Origin: Candidatus Uhrbacteria bacterium
GTDB lineage: Bacteria > Patescibacteriota > Patescibacteriia > JACPHY01
NCBI GenBank assembly: GCA_016188355.1
Contig: JACPHY010000010.1
Span: 1-17,896, forward strand
DNA: 17,896 nucleotides
Direction of reading: 5' to 3'
Shown here: positions 1 to 6,092 of the stretch, piece by piece
Layout: each line of letters starts with the position of its first letter
Numbering within the stretch: the stretch's first letter is position 1
Position numbers and translations under genes: made by a program
The notes under the pieces: generated by a model
Seen by the model: the letters and a program-made list of their open reading frames with translations, nothing else
Databases searched by the model: none
What the model was told of the DNA's origin: nothing

Positions 1-1044
1 CTCTGCCTCTTCGTGCATTTCGCGTGTGCGAATCTGGAATTCCACAGAATCCTCGTTGGTGACGGCAACGGTGGTATGGAGGGATTGGTATCCGTTCGGT
101 TTTGGGTGGGCAATGTAATCTTTGAGTCGATCGGGCAGTGGTTGCCAATGTTGATGGACGATACTGAGTACGGTGTAACAGTCCGCAACGTGTTCTACGA
201 TGATGCGGAGCGCGAGATGGTCGTAGATCTTGGTGATGTCACGGTCCAGTCGGATGAGTTTTTGGTACAGGCTGTATCGGTGCTTCATGCGCGCCTCAAT
301 AGAAACGACGGGCACATGCGCATCGGCGAGGACCCGTGCGGTCGTGTGCCGCAGTTGTTCGCAGAGCGCACGGCGGGACGGAGTCTCGAGTGTGGTGATG
401 AGCGATGCGATCCATCGCGCATCCTCGGGGTAGGCGTAGGGAAAGGCGAGATCTTCGAGTTGTGCTTTGATTTCATACATACCCAAGCGGTTGGCGATGG
501 GCGCATGAATCTCGAGGCTCTCGCGTGCGATACGCATGCGTTTTTTTTCGGGCACGTATTGAATGGTCTCGAGGTTGTGGAGACGGTCGCAGAACTTAAT
601 GATGATGACACGGATATCCTTGGCCATCGCCACGAACATCTTCCGAAGATTTTCAATATACCGCGCCTCTCCGTGGAGACGAACGGTACTCGTTTTGGTG
701 ACCCCCTCGACCAGCGAGGCAACCTCGCGTCCGAATTCTCGGCGAAGATTTTCGGCGCTTCGGTCGGCATCCTCAATGACATCATGGAGGAGCCCCGCAG
801 CGATCATGGCGGCGGAAACACGCATGTTCGCGAGTCGTTGCGCCGTACCCACAGGATGCACAATGTACGGATGCCCCGAATATCGAAGTTTTCCCGCATG
901 CGCTGCGGCAGCGTATGCGTACGCATGGGCGATGAGGGCGAGATCATCCGCAGGAAGATACGTGCGAACCGTAGCGAGCAAAGCGTCGACGTCTCCTTGC
1001 TCATGCGTCGTTTGTGGATCATGGACAACTGTTGGTGCAGTCAT
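1..1044 (-). CDS. rel: Bifunctional (p)ppGpp synthetase/hydrolase of the Rel/SpoT (RSH) family. Only the N-terminal 348 aa are present; the gene runs off the left edge of the window.
   Basis: I translated the minus strand by hand from the ATG at 1044..1042; the frame stays open to position 1. The product begins MTAPTVVHDPQTTHEQ...HPYIVHPVGTAQRL...AAGLLHDVIEDA, which is the HD hydrolase motif. It continues ...RYSLYQKL...ALRIIVEH...GYQSLHTTV, the RelA/SpoT nucleotidyltransferase signature. This ORF is absent from the six-frame track because it has no stop codon inside the window. The plus-strand ORF 13..1101 is its shadow. Confidence 0.85.
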   Translation of the reverse strand, partial: MTAPTVVHDPQTTHEQGDVDALLATVRTYLPADDLALIAHAYAYAAAAHAGKLRYSGHPYIVHPVGTAQRLANMRVSAAMIAAGLLHDVIEDADRSAENLRREFGREVASLVEGVTKTSTVRLHGEARYIENLRKMFVAMAKDIRVIIIKFCDRLHNLETIQYVPEKKRMRIARESLEIHAPIANRLGMYEIKAQLEDLAFPYAYPEDARWIASLITTLETPSRRALCEQLRHTTARVLADAHVPVVSIEARMKHRYSLYQKLIRLDRDITKIYDHLALRIIVEHVADCYTVLSIVHQHWQPLPDRLKDYIAHPKPNGYQSLHTTVAVTNEDSVEFQIRTREMHEEAE

Positions 1045-1052
1045 GCTCCGTC

Positions 1053-1081
1053 AGAATACGGCGGCCATTGTGCCCCGTCAA
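1053..1081 (-). promoter_or_regulatory. Candidate sigma70-like promoter for rel: TTGACG, a 17-nt spacer, then TATTCT. It lies so close to the ATG that the mRNA would be nearly leaderless.
   Basis: The minus strand reads TTGACGgggcacaatggccgccgTATTCTgacggagcATG. The -35 element is the reverse complement of 1076-1081 and the -10 element is the reverse complement of 1053-1058. The only SD-like GGAG sits 1 nt from the ATG, which fits a leaderless transcript. Confidence 0.3.
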
Positions 1082-1100
1082 CGCGTACGAGTATTGCGTA

Positions 1101-1133
1101 ACGAAAAACGGGCATCACGATTGGTGGTGCCCG
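1101..1133 (-). terminator. Rho-independent terminator of the 418-aa hypothetical gene.
   Basis: On the minus strand, 5 nt after the TAA stop at 1140..1138, the sequence is CGGGCACCAccaatcgTGATGCCCG followed by GUUUUUCGUU. This forms a 9-bp stem with one G-U pair. The stem and U-tract are visible on the plus strand as the acgaaaaa run at 1101-1108 next to the stem at 1109-1133. Confidence 0.5.
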
Positions 1134-1137
1134 TCCA

Positions 1138-2394
1138 TTAGCTGACTATTGTTCCTCGTTTTTTGGTGAGGATGAGCCTTCGACAGTCTCCGCGAATCCG
1201 ATCGCTACTCCAGGGGACTTGGTAGTATTGGGTTGGGAAGTAGACCGGAAAGAAGAGGCGGAGGAGTTGGCGCAGACGATAGCGGAACCAGTTCTCTTCG
1301 CCCCGGGAGTACCAGAGATTCAGGTAGTCGCGGATATGCATGATCTGGACTTCCCACGGACCGCTTTGATCATCGAATTCTCCGTAGAGTTTCATTGCAC
1401 GGAAGTACGAACCAGAAAATCGATTGAGTGCCCGCTGGGAAGTCTTGGTGTAGCGATCGTTCCACCCGGCAGTCCAAAAGCCGAAGCGAGGAAATGTCTT
1501 CGCAAGTGTTTCGTAACAGGTGATGCGATCGTCATGCGACCAGCAGGCGATGCGGATTCCGCGGATATCCTCCACCCATTCCGGGAACGAGATATTATCG
1601 CGGAGCATGTGTAGGATGATGCTGAACGGTGTTTTCACGCGATACTGGATGAGACAATCGATCGCACGTTTGCACGTATCCTGGAATTGACCGACGTCCG
1701 GGAGGGTGATGGATTGCCACCCTGCTTTTGGGGTGAAGGAAACGTCGAGACAGCGGCCTTCCGGGTTCTTCCCTTCCACGTTGGTAAAATTCGCAAATAT
1801 CGTTCGTTCGTTCGGCAGTTGGGTGATCAACTGCTTCTGGAAGAGGTCCTGCACATACGAGTACGCATCGAGGCTCCTCTTGTAGAAGGACGGTGTCGAA
1901 GCCCCCAGATAGCCGCCGTATCGGATGCGGAGGATGAGCATGGCGAGATGATGGAGGCGGCGCGCCTCGAACGATAGGCGCCGCTGCTCCTCGCGATCAG
2001 ATTTCGGCATCATGATCGCAAGGAGTTCATTGAGAGAGCCTGGCGGTTCATGGATTACCGTATTCCGGCGAATGGTCTTCGCGTGTTCCTCCGGAATCCA
2101 TTGTTCGATCTGTTGCGCGAGCATGGTGTGCGCTTCTCCGATGGCACCGCCAATCGCACGTTCGGCATTTTCCTCGGGAGGAATAAATGGGAATGCGCCC
2201 TGCATGAGCCGCAACGCTCCTTCGGGGTGTGCCTGCCGTTCCCGGATGAGCGATTCGAAGAGTCGAATGTTGGTGTAGTCGAATGTGCGATGTTTGCGAA
2301 GCTGCTGGAGTGCACCTTCGTCCATGTCGATTCTGCTTGCGAGCAGCGGGTGCGCCATGGGGTCGCGCGCCAGCCGTCTCCGTGTTTTGGTCAT
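1138..2394 (-). CDS. Hypothetical protein, 418 aa, rich in Trp and Tyr, with no recognisable family.
   Basis: This is a long ORF with non-repetitive, protein-like composition, e.g. ...WSHDDRITCYETLAKTFPRFGFWTAGWNDRYTK...NLWYSRGEENWFRYRL.... A strong SD precedes the start: gacgaGGAGGcgccATG. It has its own terminator and a long upstream leader. The plus-strand ORFs 1219..1614 and 1687..1977 are shadows. Confidence 0.75.
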   Translation of the reverse strand: MTKTRRRLARDPMAHPLLASRIDMDEGALQQLRKHRTFDYTNIRLFESLIRERQAHPEGALRLMQGAFPFIPPEENAERAIGGAIGEAHTMLAQQIEQWIPEEHAKTIRRNTVIHEPPGSLNELLAIMMPKSDREEQRRLSFEARRLHHLAMLILRIRYGGYLGASTPSFYKRSLDAYSYVQDLFQKQLITQLPNERTIFANFTNVEGKNPEGRCLDVSFTPKAGWQSITLPDVGQFQDTCKRAIDCLIQYRVKTPFSIILHMLRDNISFPEWVEDIRGIRIACWSHDDRITCYETLAKTFPRFGFWTAGWNDRYTKTSQRALNRFSGSYFRAMKLYGEFDDQSGPWEVQIMHIRDYLNLWYSRGEENWFRYRLRQLLRLFFPVYFPTQYYQVPWSSDRIRGDCRRLILTKKRGTIVS

Positions 2395-2580
2395 GGCGCC
2401 TCCTCGTCCATTTGCGCGTGCAATTGCGGCGTGGCGACGAGATCCGAATGGCTCTCATCGCGTCCCGCGCGTGGTGAATTGGAAATGATCGTCCCCGCCA
2501 ATCGAGCGAAGGTGCACTCACTGTACGGAAGATCAAAATCTCTGTCAATGGCCTGGCATGAATGGTGGCTACGGACAAAT

Positions 2581-2634
2581 ACATACAAAACACGACCCAC
2601 TCGACTGTGTACGAGCGGGTCGTGCCTGTTTTCT
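2581..2634. terminator. Bidirectional intrinsic-terminator-like hairpin.
   Basis: The stem is cacgacccactcg (2591-2603) with loop actgtgta, then cgagcgggtcgtg (2612-2624). That is 13 bp with one mismatch. On the plus strand it is followed by cctgttttct. On the minus strand it is followed by UUUUGUAUGUAUUUGUC. Confidence 0.45.
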
Positions 2635-2652
2635 GAGCGTCCCGTTGCCGGA

Positions 2653-2668
2653 AACTCAAACATTCACA
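2653..2668. repeat. Direct repeat copy 1: AACTCAAACATTCACA.
   Basis: An exact 16-nt match to 2741-2756, about 88 bp away, lying in noncoding DNA. Confidence 0.6.
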
Positions 2669-2740
2669 AATTGACTATACGTGCGGGAGGCGTGCTTGTC
2701 AAGCTGGGCGTCTGTGGATCACCATGGAGTGGGGAGGCAG

Positions 2741-2756
2741 AACTCAAACATTCACA
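2741..2756. repeat. Direct repeat copy 2: AACTCAAACATTCACA. It sits in the loop of an imperfect hairpin (ggggaggcag...ctgtcctcccc) and is followed by CTGTTTTTT.
   Basis: An exact 16-nt match to 2653-2668. The flanking arms GGGGAGG and CCTCCCC are inverted. A T6 run follows at 2760-2765. Confidence 0.6.
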
Positions 2757-2841
2757 CTGTTTTTTGGGTCCCCTGTCCTCCCCTTTATCCTCACGCGCAG
2801 GCCCGCGTGATTTGAAATTATAGGGTAAAGCTTTGCAGCAG

Positions 2842-2872
2842 AGCGCCCGTTCCAGGCAGTGGAACGGGCGCT
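2842..2872 (-). terminator. Hairpin that probably terminates metK. The stem is perfect (12 bp) but the U-tract is weak.
   Basis: agcgcccgttcc / aggcagt / ggaacgggcgct lies 45 nt downstream of the metK stop at 2918. Downstream on the minus strand the sequence is cugcugcaaagcuuu. Confidence 0.4.
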
Positions 2873-2917
2873 TGTGGTTGCTTCACGCACGCGGATCATC
2901 GAGCTAGCAGTGCTCCT

Positions 2918-4096
2918 TCATGCTCCTTGCGTGCCAGATCCGGGTGACCATCGCTCCCAGGGGAGTTCCGGATCGCCGAAGTGCCCCCACGTGGCGAGAT
3001 GTTCCCAGCGCATGGCGTGGAGCTGCAGGTCGCGGAAGGTGCCGGCGATGGAGCAGTCGTACCCGGAGAGCCACCGGCGCGCAAATACGGGATCCGCTCG
3101 TTTCCAGGTGAGCGTGTGTGCTGCGGGATCATGCGTGCCAAACTGTATCTCCGACCATCGCGGGTTGGTGTCTCCCGGAGCGTAAGCGAGGTGCACGAGC
3201 GCGCGTTCGGCTACGCCGGCCATGACGAGGTGCTTTGCGATCTGACGCGCGCGCAGCGCGGCGGTGCGATCGATTTTGTGCGGGTCTTTCCCGGAGAGCG
3301 CACCCCCGCCGATTGGTACGTGCGGACCAAATGCGTCCACGACGAGCTTTTTTCCGGAGAGTCCGTTATCGCCTTCCGGCCCGCCGACCGCGAAATCGCC
3401 CGCGCCATTCACGAGGAGCGCGTCCGGATGTTCCTCCCAGGTGAGCGCGGGAATCGACGCGAGCCGCTGCTGGGCCGCTGCGCGGACGCGTTTTACGGCA
3501 TCAATGATGTCGACCGTCCCCACCTTCGGATGATGTTGCACGGAGCAGCTCATTGCTTCGATGTTGCAGCGTGCTTGGTGGCGCGTGCCGTCCCATTCGT
3601 CCCGAGCGACGATGAGTATTTTGCCGTCCGGTCCAAAGAGCTTCGGAGCGCTCCGTCGCTCACGATCGAGTTCCTCCGCGCATACGCGGGCAACTCGGTG
3701 CGCGGTGGGGAGGTAGTGTGTTTCCGGTTGTGCCTCCGCGTACCCGGTGACGATGTTTTGATCATCCGCGAGACGACGAATGTCGCGTTCCTCGGGTCGG
3801 AAATCGCCGAGGCAGAGATCCTGCAGGATGTGGAGGTGCTCGGGATTTGGTCCGAAGGTAGCACCGTATCCGCTCGTCGTGCAGATGCGGCGTGCGATGC
3901 GATCGACATCGATGGATTCCGCGCCCGGGCATGCGATGCGTCCATCGATGAAGACGTGATCGCGATGGACAGCGACCTCAATGCCGACGAGTGCATCGGT
4001 GTCGCGGGTGAGTGCGGCGTCCACAAGTGCGTCCGCAATGCGATCGCTGAGCTTATCGGGGTGTCCCGGGAGAGTGCATTCGGCGAAGGTGCGCAT
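2918..4096 (-). CDS. metK: S-adenosylmethionine synthetase (methionine adenosyltransferase).
   Basis: The N-terminus reads MRTFAECTLPGHPDKLSDRIADALVDAAL, where GHPDK is the MetK hallmark. Further in, ...GGGALSGKDPHKIDRTAALRARQIAKHLV matches the MetK GGGAFSGKDPTKVDRS P-loop. I chose the start at 4096 because GGAGGA lies 4 nt upstream. An in-frame ATG at 4108 (MEDPMRTF) is an alternative. The track ORF extending to 4303 (MASAPHH..., rich in P/R/T) is an unlikely N-terminal extension. The plus-strand ORF 2981..4243 is a shadow. Confidence 0.9.
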   Translation of the reverse strand: MRTFAECTLPGHPDKLSDRIADALVDAALTRDTDALVGIEVAVHRDHVFIDGRIACPGAESIDVDRIARRICTTSGYGATFGPNPEHLHILQDLCLGDFRPEERDIRRLADDQNIVTGYAEAQPETHYLPTAHRVARVCAEELDRERRSAPKLFGPDGKILIVARDEWDGTRHQARCNIEAMSCSVQHHPKVGTVDIIDAVKRVRAAAQQRLASIPALTWEEHPDALLVNGAGDFAVGGPEGDNGLSGKKLVVDAFGPHVPIGGGALSGKDPHKIDRTAALRARQIAKHLVMAGVAERALVHLAYAPGDTNPRWSEIQFGTHDPAAHTLTWKRADPVFARRWLSGYDCSIAGTFRDLQLHAMRWEHLATWGHFGDPELPWERWSPGSGTQGA

Positions 4097-4112
4097 GGGG
4101 TCCTCCATTCGA

Positions 4113-4143
4113 CTCCGACTCACGAAGGATTCGCGAGTCGGAG
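4113..4143 (-). promoter_or_regulatory. Perfect 9-bp hairpin in the metK 5' leader, positioned just upstream of the SD.
   Basis: On the minus strand the structure is CUCCGACUC gcgaauccuucgu GAGUCGGAG, followed by tcgaatGGAGGAccccATG. Confidence 0.35.
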
Positions 4144-4148
4144 GGAAT

Positions 4149-4175
4149 GGGCGATGCGTTGGAGTCGCATCGCCC
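4149..4175 (-). terminator. Perfect 10-bp GC-rich hairpin 4 nt after the stop of the VWA/peptidase gene. It is a candidate terminator or attenuator separating the four-gene module from metK.
   Basis: gggcgatgcg / ttggagt / cgcatcgccc. No clear U-tract follows on the minus strand; the next bases are auucccucc. Confidence 0.35.
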
Positions 4176-4179
4176 GCCG

Positions 4180-5568
4180 TCATGGGGCAAGGAGCGGTAG
4201 TTCGGTGAGTTCCTCTGCGATAGGTTGGAGGTCGGGGAGATAACCGTTCGGGGTGAGTGCGACGCGGATTCGGAGTTTCGCGGTGATGAGGCGCGCTCGC
4301 CATTCGCGGGTGGGTGGGCCGACGTATCCATCTGTCATGATGAGGATTTTTTGGAATCCCTCCTGGAGCGCGTGCTCCCAGATGCAGACGGCATCGGTAC
4401 CGCTGGTGGACGCGCAGGTGCCGGCGGCGAGCTGCGCGGTGGTCATCTCGTGGATTTGCTCACTGAAGGCAAACAGACGCGCGCGACGTTGCTGCACGTA
4501 CGGATGGACGAGTCCAGCAAAGAGGTTCCAGTACGGTCGTGTGCTGCCGCTCACGTCGATGTAGATCGAAGTGATGCCGCGGGCGTCCGTGATCTGTTGC
4601 GCGGGAATGACATTGCGGAAGATGAGCGGCGACCAACCGCCGGCGCTAGCAACCAGTGCGCGGCGATCGCGGAGCGTGGGAATGGGGGCCTCGATGGAGC
4701 GATCCGTGCATGCGCGATGGCGATGGGTTACCGCCCCCTTCACCTGCGCTTCCGCCATGGTGCGGAGCATCCGTCGGAGCACCTGCTGTGCACTCAGGGG
4801 GACGGGCGTGCGTTCGAGGAGGATGTCGCGAATGTCGCCCCCCACACTGCGTCCGCGAATGGGATCGGGTGGCATGGGCCATTTTTCCACAATCGATCGC
4901 ACCATGCCGTTCAGGAGGGGATGATGGGAGGCGGATTCCCCGCGACCTTCCGTATCTTCCGGGGAGTGATCTCCTAGGAGCACGGGCATCCTCGCTTCTT
5001 TTCCGATGCATTCGCGTAGCTGCGGGTCCTCCTGGAACAGCCGATAGACTTCGTCGTAGGTGCCGCTTGCTTCGGAGTAGAGGGTGCGGATCATGTGTTG
5101 CACGGGACGGGGGAGCGTTTTGGGAATCTGTATCTTTTTCGGCCATCCGGGTGGCGGACGGAGGAGCGCGGCGGGGAATTGATCTGCAGCGGAGAATTGG
5201 GTGAGAAAGGACGTGTAGATCGGTTCCGGGAAGAGCCGTGCCAGGATCGCATTAATGATTGCATCGAACACGATATTGTCGACCGGCGTCATGCGCGGGA
5301 AGAGTCGCGTGTGTCCGAGGAGGACATGGTGCAGTTCATGCATGACGAGCATGAAGAGATGCTCATCGGTTTTGCAGTATGCCGCGATGAAGTCCGGATT
5401 CAGGAGGAGCTTCGGCGCGGAAAGGCACTCCACGGCTGCACTGGGCACCGTCCACGATTCCACTACGTCGGTGAGCCGGAGGAAGGTATCGAGGGCGTAG
5501 TGTCCCGCAGGAAACGCCGAGAGTATCCGATGTCGGAGTGCATCGCTCGCGCGGCGATCCGCCATCAT
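4180..5568 (-). CDS. Fusion protein with an N-terminal HExxH zinc-metallopeptidase-like domain and a C-terminal von Willebrand A (VWA) domain. This is the DUF2201_N + DUF2201 architecture, the usual partner of MoxR/CbbQ-type AAA+ ATPases.
   Basis: The N-terminal half contains ...YCKTDEHLFMLVMHELHHVLLGHTRLF..., with HELHH as the HExxH motif. The C-terminal half contains ...ITSIYIDVSGSTRPYW... (a DxSxS MIDAS motif) and later ...STSGTD... and ...ILIMTDGYVG..., the VWA beta-strand motifs. The start MMADRR at 5568 overlaps the TGA of the upstream gene as ATGA, and GGAG lies 9 nt upstream. The 126 codons of the track ORF (4180..5946) upstream of this start are not used. ORF 5095..5934(+) and the ORFs at 4225-5204(+) are shadows. 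Confidence 0.8.
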   Translation of the reverse strand: MMADRRASDALRHRILSAFPAGHYALDTFLRLTDVVESWTVPSAAVECLSAPKLLLNPDFIAAYCKTDEHLFMLVMHELHHVLLGHTRLFPRMTPVDNIVFDAIINAILARLFPEPIYTSFLTQFSAADQFPAALLRPPPGWPKKIQIPKTLPRPVQHMIRTLYSEASGTYDEVYRLFQEDPQLRECIGKEARMPVLLGDHSPEDTEGRGESASHHPLLNGMVRSIVEKWPMPPDPIRGRSVGGDIRDILLERTPVPLSAQQVLRRMLRTMAEAQVKGAVTHRHRACTDRSIEAPIPTLRDRRALVASAGGWSPLIFRNVIPAQQITDARGITSIYIDVSGSTRPYWNLFAGLVHPYVQQRRARLFAFSEQIHEMTTAQLAAGTCASTSGTDAVCIWEHALQEGFQKILIMTDGYVGPPTREWRARLITAKLRIRVALTPNGYLPDLQPIAEELTELPLLAP

Positions 5569-6092
5569 GGCAGGATCTCCGCGAGCGCGACGATGCGCGG
5601 ATCGAAGGTAACGAGCTCGCGGAGCAGGAGCTCTGGCGTCACGTTGGGTGTTTTCGATGCGATGAACAGGCGGTCGGATGTTTTTGCGAGGATTGCGAGG
5701 GTGAGGGGGAGATCGCGGATGCGTCCCCAGCGAAAGGGGCGATTTAGGTTTTCTCGTATGACGGATCCCTGCTCTTGGAATATGATGCATCCCACGAATC
5801 GTTGCGCACAGATAGTGGCGTCGGCAATGGCGCAGAGGGCTTCGGCGTCGTCTTGCGCTGCGGAGACGTGTTTGGCGACCAGACTCCGGAGGCCTCGACA
5901 TACCGTATTCGGATGTCGCGTCATGATGATGTGATTCGCATTGCACGCTTCCTTCAGTGAGACGCGCACGGCGGTACGTCCCCGTACCGCGGCACCCGAT
6001 GCGGTAGTTTTCGAGGGCAGCGGCTTGACGGTGACGGTCGATCTCGACGCGCCGCTCATGTTGTGGGCGAGCGATTGTGTATCGGCGGTCAT
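5565..6092 (-). CDS. Hypothetical 175-aa protein with a Ser/Thr/Ala-rich disordered N-terminus followed by a globular domain of about 120 aa. It is an inserted middle gene of the AAA+/VWA module.
   Basis: The start ATG at 6092..6090 overlaps the TGA of the AAA gene at 6091..6089 as ATGA. Its own TGA at 5567..5565 overlaps the next ATG at 5568..5566, again as ATGA. The sequence is MTADTQSLAHNMSGASRSTVTVKPLPSKTTASGAAVRGRTAVRVSLKEA...CRGLRSLVAKHV...ELLLRELVTFDPRIVALAEILP. I treat the 16 upstream codons in the track ORF (to 6140) as non-coding overlap with the AAA gene. Confidence 0.6.
   Translation of the reverse strand: MTADTQSLAHNMSGASRSTVTVKPLPSKTTASGAAVRGRTAVRVSLKEACNANHIIMTRHPNTVCRGLRSLVAKHVSAAQDDAEALCAIADATICAQRFVGCIIFQEQGSVIRENLNRPFRWGRIRDLPLTLAILAKTSDRLFIASKTPNVTPELLLRELVTFDPRIVALAEILP

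Follow-up and report, generated by a model that had tools for sequence, protein, structure and literature searches.

A predicted ~87-nt small RNA gene with a duplicated 5′-end motif beside a MetK-like operon in Candidatus Uhrbacteria

The window analysed here is a 17,896-nt stretch of DNA, a contig (JACPHY010000010.1) of a metagenome-assembled genome (MAG) from an uncultured ‘Candidatus Uhrbacteria bacterium’. On its minus strand, a 523-bp noncoding island (positions 2395–2917) separates the stop codon of a MetK-like gene (2918) from the start codon of a gene for a 418-amino-acid protein (2394). We think it probable that this island holds a free-standing minus-strand gene for a small RNA (sRNA), made up of a promoter (P1), an RNA of ~87 nt and a terminator, with the RNA acting in trans and twin copies of a 16-nt motif being read by one factor that controls P1. 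The island as a whole consists of the 3′ hairpin of the upstream operon, the sRNA module of ~200 bp, a second promoter (P2) and the 5′ untranslated region (UTR) of the 418-amino-acid gene. The ~200-bp module, comprising an upstream element (block 2) with one motif copy, P1 and the sRNA, recurs in three further lineages; the four lineages, all uncultured and of candidate-phyla-radiation (CPR)/Uhrbacteria type, fall into two subclades and define a small, previously undescribed sRNA family. In the mechanism that we propose, RNA polymerase carrying the housekeeping sigma factor would start at P1, near position 2667, and stop at the hairpin at 2627..2588 and its U-run, yielding the ~87-nt RNA. This RNA would act in trans through its invariant 5′ end and its invariant second helix, P1 would be controlled by one factor bound to the two motif copies that bracket it, in a geometry resembling a two-operator loop, and the 418-amino-acid gene would be expressed separately from P2.

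To locate promoters, the full 17.9 kb was scanned with a sigma-70-like consensus. Nine promoter-like sites were returned, the best two of which both lie in the island on the minus strand. P1 (TTGACA-17-TATAGT, 2702..2674) is the best in the window, matching 11 of 12 consensus positions, and a site matching at least 11 of 12 was obtained in 2.7% of whole-window shuffles. Its −35 hexamer, TTGACA (2697..2702), is separated by a 17-bp spacer from the −10 hexamer, TATAGT (2674..2679), which is followed after 5 bp by the first copy of the 16-nt motif. An earlier, first-pass annotation of the island had instead pointed to a perfect TATAAT on the minus strand at 2817–2822 and had drawn from it a transcription unit of ~230 nt. 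The hexamer is present (ATTATA on the plus strand); its role as a promoter was not borne out, as no −35 element was called for it and the stretch in which it lies is deleted in the closest relative. The conserved P1, 5 bp upstream of motif copy 1, gives an RNA of ~87 nt in place of the ~230-nt unit.

A search with the MetK-like protein gave closer relatives, and their contigs were compared with the window. The closest, L195, is a syntenic Uhrbacteria MAG whose MetK-like and 418-amino-acid proteins are 85% and 59% identical to those of the window. L197 and L198, with a MetK-like protein of 66% identity, carry the same module at ~71% identity in the opposite orientation relative to the MetK-like gene; in L197, the module sits between the terminator of a gene for a HAD hydrolase and the MetK-like terminator. 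A covariance model of the sRNA, which scores 110, 110, 87 and 73 bits in the four lineages, recovered the fourth copy (73 bits) in L201, where it is convergent with the MetK-like operon and where the contig ends exactly at TTGACA-17-TATGAT-5-CGTGAATG. The model detected nothing in 27 distant loci, nor in L199, L200, L202, L203, L205 and L206. The 27 loci, whose MetK-like relatives are ~40% identical, share the MoxR–vWA–MetK genes but not the sRNA module. Among the five members of the closest MetK-like clade, four have the sRNA within ~520 bp of the 3′ end of the MoxR–vWA–MetK-like operon, and it was not found in the remaining one, L200.

All four lineages keep the arrangement TTGACA-17-TATNNT-5-(T/C)GTGAATG, with an invariant −35 hexamer and −10 hexamers of TATAGT, TATAGT, TATCGT and TATGAT. 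The spacer and the discriminator retain their lengths and change in sequence (12/17 and 0/5 positions identical to L195; 6/17 and 0/5 identical to L197), such that the hexamers are held at fixed spacing while the sequence between them drifts, as expected of a promoter that belongs to the RNA itself. The alignment shows that L195 has the same P1 hexamers, retains P2 together with its +1 region and lacks the stretch carrying the TATAAT. From its 5′ end through the terminator stem, the sRNA is identical to that of L195 at 79 of 81 positions, and block 2 is identical at 69 of 70. Since the third codon positions of the MetK-like gene are only 56% identical between the window and L195, this near-identity argues that block 2 and the sRNA are under strong constraint.

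The predicted sRNA (2580..2667, minus strand), with its start placed from the geometry of P1, begins with a single-stranded GUGAAUG and continues through a first stem-loop (SL1), a linker (AAAACAGG), a second helix (helix 2) and a U-run. Its calculated fold has a free energy of −42.9 kcal/mol (z = −6.0), and the RNAs of the four lineages individually give z-scores of −3.9 to −6.3. SL1 (2632..2660) is a 12-pair hairpin closed by a GNRA tetraloop, GCAA here and GAAA in L197 and L201. Compensatory changes, which the first-pass annotation had suggested looking for in homologous intergenic regions, were found in this hairpin: among the four lineages, both partners differ in 5 of the 12 pairs, and 87.5% of cells are paired. 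The covariation score in an alignment of four sequences fitted to the model is 0.202, a value that 5 of 500 shuffles attained and that lies above every slid control. Both helices contain G–U pairs that would be A–C mismatches on the other strand, which assigns the RNA to the minus strand. A plus-strand transcript was accordingly rejected, with no promoter-like site to drive it and with G–U pairs on the minus strand only.

Helix 2 (2588..2627, minus strand), predicted to be the intrinsic terminator hairpin here, comprises 16 pairs followed by UUUUGU and is the best terminator-like site of the window; it lies between P1 and P2. The 13-bp hairpin that had been picked out earlier at its core (2591–2603/2612–2624) is therefore real and belongs to the top-ranked terminator-like site on the minus strand. 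The accompanying proposal that it terminates transcription in both directions stands for the minus strand; on the plus strand, the signal is a weak 6-pair stem with a T4 tail, and the plus-strand T-run is lost in L197 and L201. The hairpin is followed by TTTTGT in the window, by ATTTTTT in L195 and, as read by eye, by CGTTTTC in L201. Across the four lineages, 15 of the 16 pairs are invariant and the loop varies, at a divergence at which synonymous sites of the neighbouring gene are 46–61% identical. The invariance of this stem points to a sequence-specific constraint. Together with P1 and the conservation, the terminator supports an independent small RNA on the minus strand with its 3′ end at the 2591–2624 hairpin, one of the two possibilities that the first-pass annotation had raised.

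No credible open reading frame (ORF) interrupts the island, in agreement with the earlier description of it. A 90-amino-acid minus-strand ORF (2391–2663) and small plus-strand ORFs are not conserved in frame, the relatives having indels of 13 and 26 nt. Small-ORF readings, namely peptides beginning MFEF that start in each 16-mer and the 90-amino-acid ORF ending in ATGA at 2391, were rejected because neither frame nor length is conserved in L195 or L197.

The other possibility raised at the outset was that the ~230-nt unit from the TATAAT at 2822–2817 is a cis-acting attenuator or riboswitch-like leader of the 418-amino-acid gene. The TATAAT and the terminator do exist, and the unit would lie upstream of the 418-amino-acid gene in both the window and L195. 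However, besides the missing −35 element and the absence of the hexamer and its surroundings from L195, the conserved P2 intervenes between the terminator and the gene. Moreover, the L197 and L201 modules have no 418-amino-acid homologue in the sequence examined and no gene downstream of the RNA on the RNA's strand, and the orientation relative to the MetK-like gene is reversed there; the module is thus not a same-strand 5′ UTR of a regulated gene in all relatives. The Rfam comparison that had been proposed also returned no family for the island. No match was found in the window with Rfam 15 at gathering thresholds, a whole-window scan at E ≤ 5 gave nothing in the island, a permissive scan of 2200–3100 gave only ALIL (12 bits), inside a coding sequence, and nothing overlaps the module in L195, L197 or L201. 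No competing terminator or antiterminator structure appears in the minimum-free-energy or centroid folds, although no dedicated search for one was made. We regard the leader model as very unlikely. Because the module is inverted in two lineages without the 418-amino-acid gene beside it, we take the sRNA gene to be independent and neither an attenuator nor a riboswitch.

A different dependence on a neighbour is suggested by the side of the island that faces the MetK-like gene. In this explanation, positions 2917–2580 would be a long 3′ UTR of the MetK-like operon, the hairpin at 2627..2588 its terminator and P1 an internal promoter, in the manner of MicL and DapZ, which are 3′-UTR-derived sRNAs with an internal promoter. 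In the window and in L195, the RNA indeed comes right after the MetK-like gene and on its strand. The intervening hairpin H1 (2842..2872, minus strand), a perfect 13-bp hairpin 46 nt past the MetK-like stop that we take as the 3′ hairpin of the upstream operon, is not followed by a minus-strand U-run in either lineage, so that helix 2 is the first strong terminator encountered. H1 is kept in L195 with one compensatory G–C to A–U change and a different loop. In L197 and L201, by contrast, the sRNA is conserved yet faces the MetK-like gene in convergent orientation, and a separate terminator hairpin serves that gene; co-orientation and a shared terminator are therefore found in the window and L195 and not in L197 and L201, and the RNA is not tied to the 3′ UTR of that gene. 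A 3′-UTR origin seems doubtful to us on these grounds.

The feature of the module that most clearly calls for explanation is its duplicated motif. The sequence AACTCAAACATTCACA occurs exactly twice in the window, at 2653–2668 and 2741–2756, 88 bp apart from start to start, as the first-pass annotation had reported. When the window was dinucleotide-shuffled 200 times, no shuffle had an exact repeat of at least 16 nt within 200 bp and 28 had one anywhere in the window, so that it is the proximity of the pair that is unusual. Copy 1 (2653..2668, minus strand) supplies the first bases of the predicted sRNA, the single-stranded GUGAAUG, and the 5′ arm of SL1, spanning +1 to +15 of the predicted P1 RNA. 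Copy 2 (2741..2756; minus strand TGTGAATGTTTGAGTT) lies outside the RNA and is centred at approximately −81.5 from the P1 start. The window and L195 carry TGTGAATGTTTGAGTT in both copies, and L197 carries TGTGAATGCTTGGGCC in copy 2 and TGTGAATGCTTGGGAC in copy 1. Between the subclades, copy 1 and copy 2 have changed at the same 4 of 16 positions, at three of which they have acquired the identical base; in copy 1, at least one of the four changes is compensated in the 3′ arm of SL1. The lengths of the arrangement are identical in the window, L195 and L197: 88 from copy to copy, 28 from GGGGAGG to copy 2, 53 from copy 2 to the −35 hexamer, 17 for the spacer and 5 for the discriminator. Two copies that change together at a constant 88 bp suggest, on sequence grounds, a shared binding factor.

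If the 16-mer were a fragment of a dispersed repeat or mobile element, such as a repetitive extragenic palindrome (REP), a miniature inverted-repeat transposable element (MITE) or an att-site scar, the remaining features would be coincidental. The module does differ in orientation among lineages, and the copies are direct repeats. However, neither the motif (GTGAATGYTTGRG) nor the inverted repeat of block 2 was found anywhere else in 523 kb of related loci, and the module copies are the only ones there and in the window. The many copies and terminal inverted repeats of a REP or MITE are not seen in this sequence, and comparison of the module with phages and plasmids gave no match. A 16-mer probe produced 42 viral matches, all single copy without extended similarity and approximately the number estimated for chance, and at least 120 metagenomic matches, of which those listed are single copy without extended similarity and are read as chance; the helix-2 pattern gave 0 matches in viral contigs. 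Both copies also co-evolve at the fixed 88 bp even though neutral sites are saturated. These observations make a repeat fragment extremely unlikely and mark the 16-mer as a conserved, probably functional motif confined to the module in the related loci. Readings of the motif as a DnaA box, a CRP box or an alternative-sigma element were likewise rejected, owing to poor matches by eye, no skew switch and no conservation. The repeats of type III toxin–antitoxin systems were set aside too, as the 16-nt copies are not tandem but 88 bp apart, with unrelated sequence between them and no significant extended unit similarity.

Copy 2 is embedded in block 2 (2714..2783, minus strand; approximately −116 to −47 of P1), in which an inverted repeat, GGGGAGG(A)CAG / CUGCCUCCCC, surrounds an A-run and the motif. 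The earlier placement of copy 2 in a hairpin loop is correct in that it lies in the loop of a GGGGAGG...CCUCCCC hairpin, and the T6 run that was said to follow it is also within that loop. The first 53 nt of block 2 are ~79% identical to L197. The distance from block 2 to the −35 hexamer is identical in three lineages, whereas the 28-nt linker between them is identical to that of L197 at only 6 of 28 positions. A linker that is locked in length but free in sequence, directly beside P1, argues for a phased element at the level of DNA, and for this reason we favour one factor that would bind both copies. Derivation of block 2 from the sRNA by circular permutation (SL1 3′ arm and linker, fused to the 5′ motif) was rejected because the similarity was not significant (128, 573 and 874 of 2,000 shuffles).

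The twin motif might instead act at the level of RNA. Here, read-through past H1 would transcribe block 2, both copies would present a single-stranded GUGAAUG beside a UUUGAG helix to one protein or RNA partner, and a short sRNA and a long 3′-UTR form would coexist. The lack of a minus-strand U-run at H1 in the window and L195 would permit such read-through, and the predicted fold of block 2 places GUGUGAAUG in the loop and pairs UUUGAG, as in the sRNA. In addition, the inner helix ACCCAAA/UUUGAGU becomes GCCCAA/UUGGGC in L197, with A–U changing to G–C and C·A to C–G, and selection for identity between the copies is most easily explained by one partner that reads both. On the other hand, the HAD gene upstream of block 2 in L197 ends in a strong intrinsic terminator that block 2 directly follows, and in none of the lineages was a promoter-like site called upstream of block 2. 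The hairpin itself is weak (z = −0.6 to −3.0), no better than shuffles in the window and L195 (z = −0.6 and −1.2), and contains a C·A mismatch on the minus strand, and the locked length of the unconserved linker fits DNA phasing better. We therefore hold an RNA-level role for both copies to be a minority possibility.

Several observations weigh against our preferred reading of a trans-acting sRNA whose promoter is controlled through the two motif copies. The promoter scan assumes that a sigma-70-like consensus is used in this way in CPR bacteria, and the ends of the sRNA are predictions from the sequence. Four lineages in two subclades mean that most of the compensatory changes may trace to one or two events, and the pairs were counted in an alignment that had itself been fitted to the model. 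The L197 copy of helix 2 has no U-run of its own, and 12 nt beyond it comes a second hairpin that does have one; helix 2 therefore appears to be conserved for more than termination. Block 2 can fold as an RNA hairpin with one compensatory pair (A–U to G–C). A target search in four loci, based on complementarity to GUGAAUG and on duplex energy, returned only chance-level or trivial antisense matches, and no regulon was found, the motif being confined to the module in the 523 kb of related loci. Finally, no helix-turn-helix protein was recognised among the shared neighbours and no candidate DNA-binding protein was found, and the motif is a non-palindromic direct repeat, unlike classical looping operators.

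The last point concerns the system that the arrangement around P1 most resembles, the two-operator promoter loop of lac, in which O1 is centred at +11 and O3 at −82. As in lac, two copies bracket the promoter, one over the start and one near −82, and their separation is fixed (88 bp in the window, L195 and L197). The features that do not correspond are the cognate DNA-binding protein and dyad-symmetric operators, the motif as read from the sequence having no dyad symmetry. In addition, 88 bp amounts to ~8.4 helical turns, and copy 1 is also part of a compensating RNA hairpin.

As an RNA gene, the module is closest to RybB, OmrA/B and MicC, which are trans-encoded sRNAs with their own sigma-70 promoter, a seed at the 5′ end and a Rho-independent terminator. 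The likeness lies in a stand-alone gene of under 100 nt with a consensus-like promoter, an unpaired and conserved 5′ end, internal and terminator hairpins and a U-run, and in a conservation of the predicted sRNA that is far above that of neighbouring neutral sites. By contrast, there is no sequence or Rfam relationship to these RNAs, the RNA comes from an uncultured CPR lineage, its terminator stem is held constant in sequence and not merely in structure, and a second copy of its first 16 nt lies upstream of the promoter.

Downstream of the sRNA gene, P2 (TTGACA-17-TACAGT, 2520..2548, minus strand), the second-best promoter-like site of the window at 10/12, is predicted to drive the 418-amino-acid gene. 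L195 and L002 retain its −35 hexamer, most of its spacer and its +1 region, GAGTGCACCTTCGC. In the predicted 5′ UTR (2395..2513, minus strand), a ribosome-binding site, GAGGAGG, precedes the ATG at 2394 by 5 nt. Conservation with L195 and L002 extends over no more than the first ~15 nt of this UTR, beyond which the sequence has diverged and includes a 26-nt indel. The first bases of the predicted P2 transcript (GAGUGCACCUUCG, 2507–2519) show perfect 13-nt complementarity to 2308–2320, within codons 25–29 of the 418-amino-acid gene. L195 and L002 keep the 5′ segment but pair it with a different long-range partner (32–44 with 316–328), and the 13-nt complementarity may be due to chance. L193 (SRR12113419), a strain variant of the contig, differs by 18 single-nucleotide polymorphisms over 7.2 kb; one of them falls in the island (window position 2423, in the 5′ UTR of the 418-amino-acid gene) and none in the sRNA module.

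The 418-amino-acid ORF (HYV74_03050, 1138–2394, minus strand) encodes a protein found in one other lineage among 5.8 billion clustered proteins, at 59% identity. No homologues were found in JGI metagenomes and no relative by sequence in the PDB; the protein has a sub-threshold match to a RelA_SpoT nucleotidyltransferase domain (PF04607, 21.5 bits). In both genomes, the gene is followed by a long RelA/SpoT homologue.

Upstream of the island, all genes from position 1 to 11407 lie on the minus strand, in the order major-vault-protein (MVP)-like, MTA/SAH-nucleosidase-like, a 332-amino-acid protein, a MoxR AAA ATPase, a 175-amino-acid protein, a vWA protein and the MetK-like protein; the island, the 418-amino-acid gene and the long RelA/SpoT homologue then follow. 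The last protein before the island, labelled metK in the first-pass annotation, is related to MetK but scores 206.9 bits against an NCBIfam metK cut-off of 309.4, and it is a paralogue of MetK-like type and the last gene of the MoxR–vWA–MetK-like string. The MoxR AAA ATPase, the ~175-amino-acid protein, the vWA protein (weak DUF2201_N plus VWA_CoxE) and the MetK-like protein form a conserved module (window ~2918–7520, minus strand). It recurs in 27 loci from many phyla (L003–L029), is also present in L195, L197, L199, L201, L203 and L206, and has hosts among Verrucomicrobia, Chloroflexota, Myxococcota, Bacilli, CPR and others. Apart from the sub-threshold metK match, this gene module has no counterpart among PADLOC or NCBIfam families, and nothing was found in the literature on a MoxR–vWA–SAM-synthetase gene string (SAM, S-adenosylmethionine). 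In the same string, upstream of the nucleosidase-like gene, the 595-amino-acid MVP-like protein (9620–11407, minus strand) matches the major-vault-protein shoulder (PF11978, 5e-30) and Vault repeats (PF17795, PF17794, PF17796); its gene is absent at the corresponding position of L197.

The longest exact repeat of the window, 22 nt (minus strand GGGGAGCCTCGCTCCCCTCCTC), also lies in this string, at 7671–7692 and 8775–8796, one copy 5 nt past the stop of the nucleosidase-like gene and the other 26 nt past the stop of the 332-amino-acid gene. It forms a hairpin of 7 bp, with CUC in the loop and UCCUC after it, and may be an intra-operon hairpin element; its stem, GGGGAG/CUCCCC, is similar to the outer stem of block 2.

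At the 5′ end of the MetK-like gene string, a SAM-I (S-box)-like match (11681–11793, minus strand) scores 24.6 bits (E = 0.11; gathering score 44.4) and is followed by a long hairpin (11618–11667) and a terminator with a T-run. In L197, a near-threshold SAM match (1245–1363; 41.9 bits, E = 1.4e-6) lies directly upstream of MoxR. From these matches, the whole MoxR–vWA–MetK-like string seems to be SAM-controlled and led by a divergent SAM-I riboswitch. The match to SAM-I (RF00162) in the window is weak and lies 9 kb from the island, and nothing within 2395–2917 matches any riboswitch model.

A more speculative reading, to which we give little credence, joins the sRNA module to this operon. The module would be a self-referential RNA switch for the adjacent, SAM-riboswitch-led MoxR–vWA–MetK-like operon, in which the copy of the sRNA's 5′ end that lies 88 bp before its start is recognised by the sRNA itself or by a protein of the same system bound to this end, either through RNA:DNA pairing or as a ribonucleoprotein on DNA. 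If true, this would explain why the copies stay identical to each other and why the RNA remains by the 3′ end of the operon despite a changed orientation and a different neighbour on its other side, and the RNA could even be a component of the operon's major-vault-protein-like machinery.

No report of a regulatory RNA from CPR bacteria emerged from literature searches directed at this group. The module described here, which probably encodes a free-standing sRNA, provides a compact and delimited candidate in organisms that cannot be cultured, a concrete target for metatranscriptomics and a promoter that can be tested in a heterologous host. The analysis also corrects the local annotation, in that the MetK-like string is seemingly led by a SAM-I element and the 418-amino-acid gene has a predicted promoter of its own. 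Two features, the motif copies that co-evolve at a locked distance of 88 bp and the ‘terminator’ stem that is invariant in sequence, ask for a mechanism beyond that of another sRNA.

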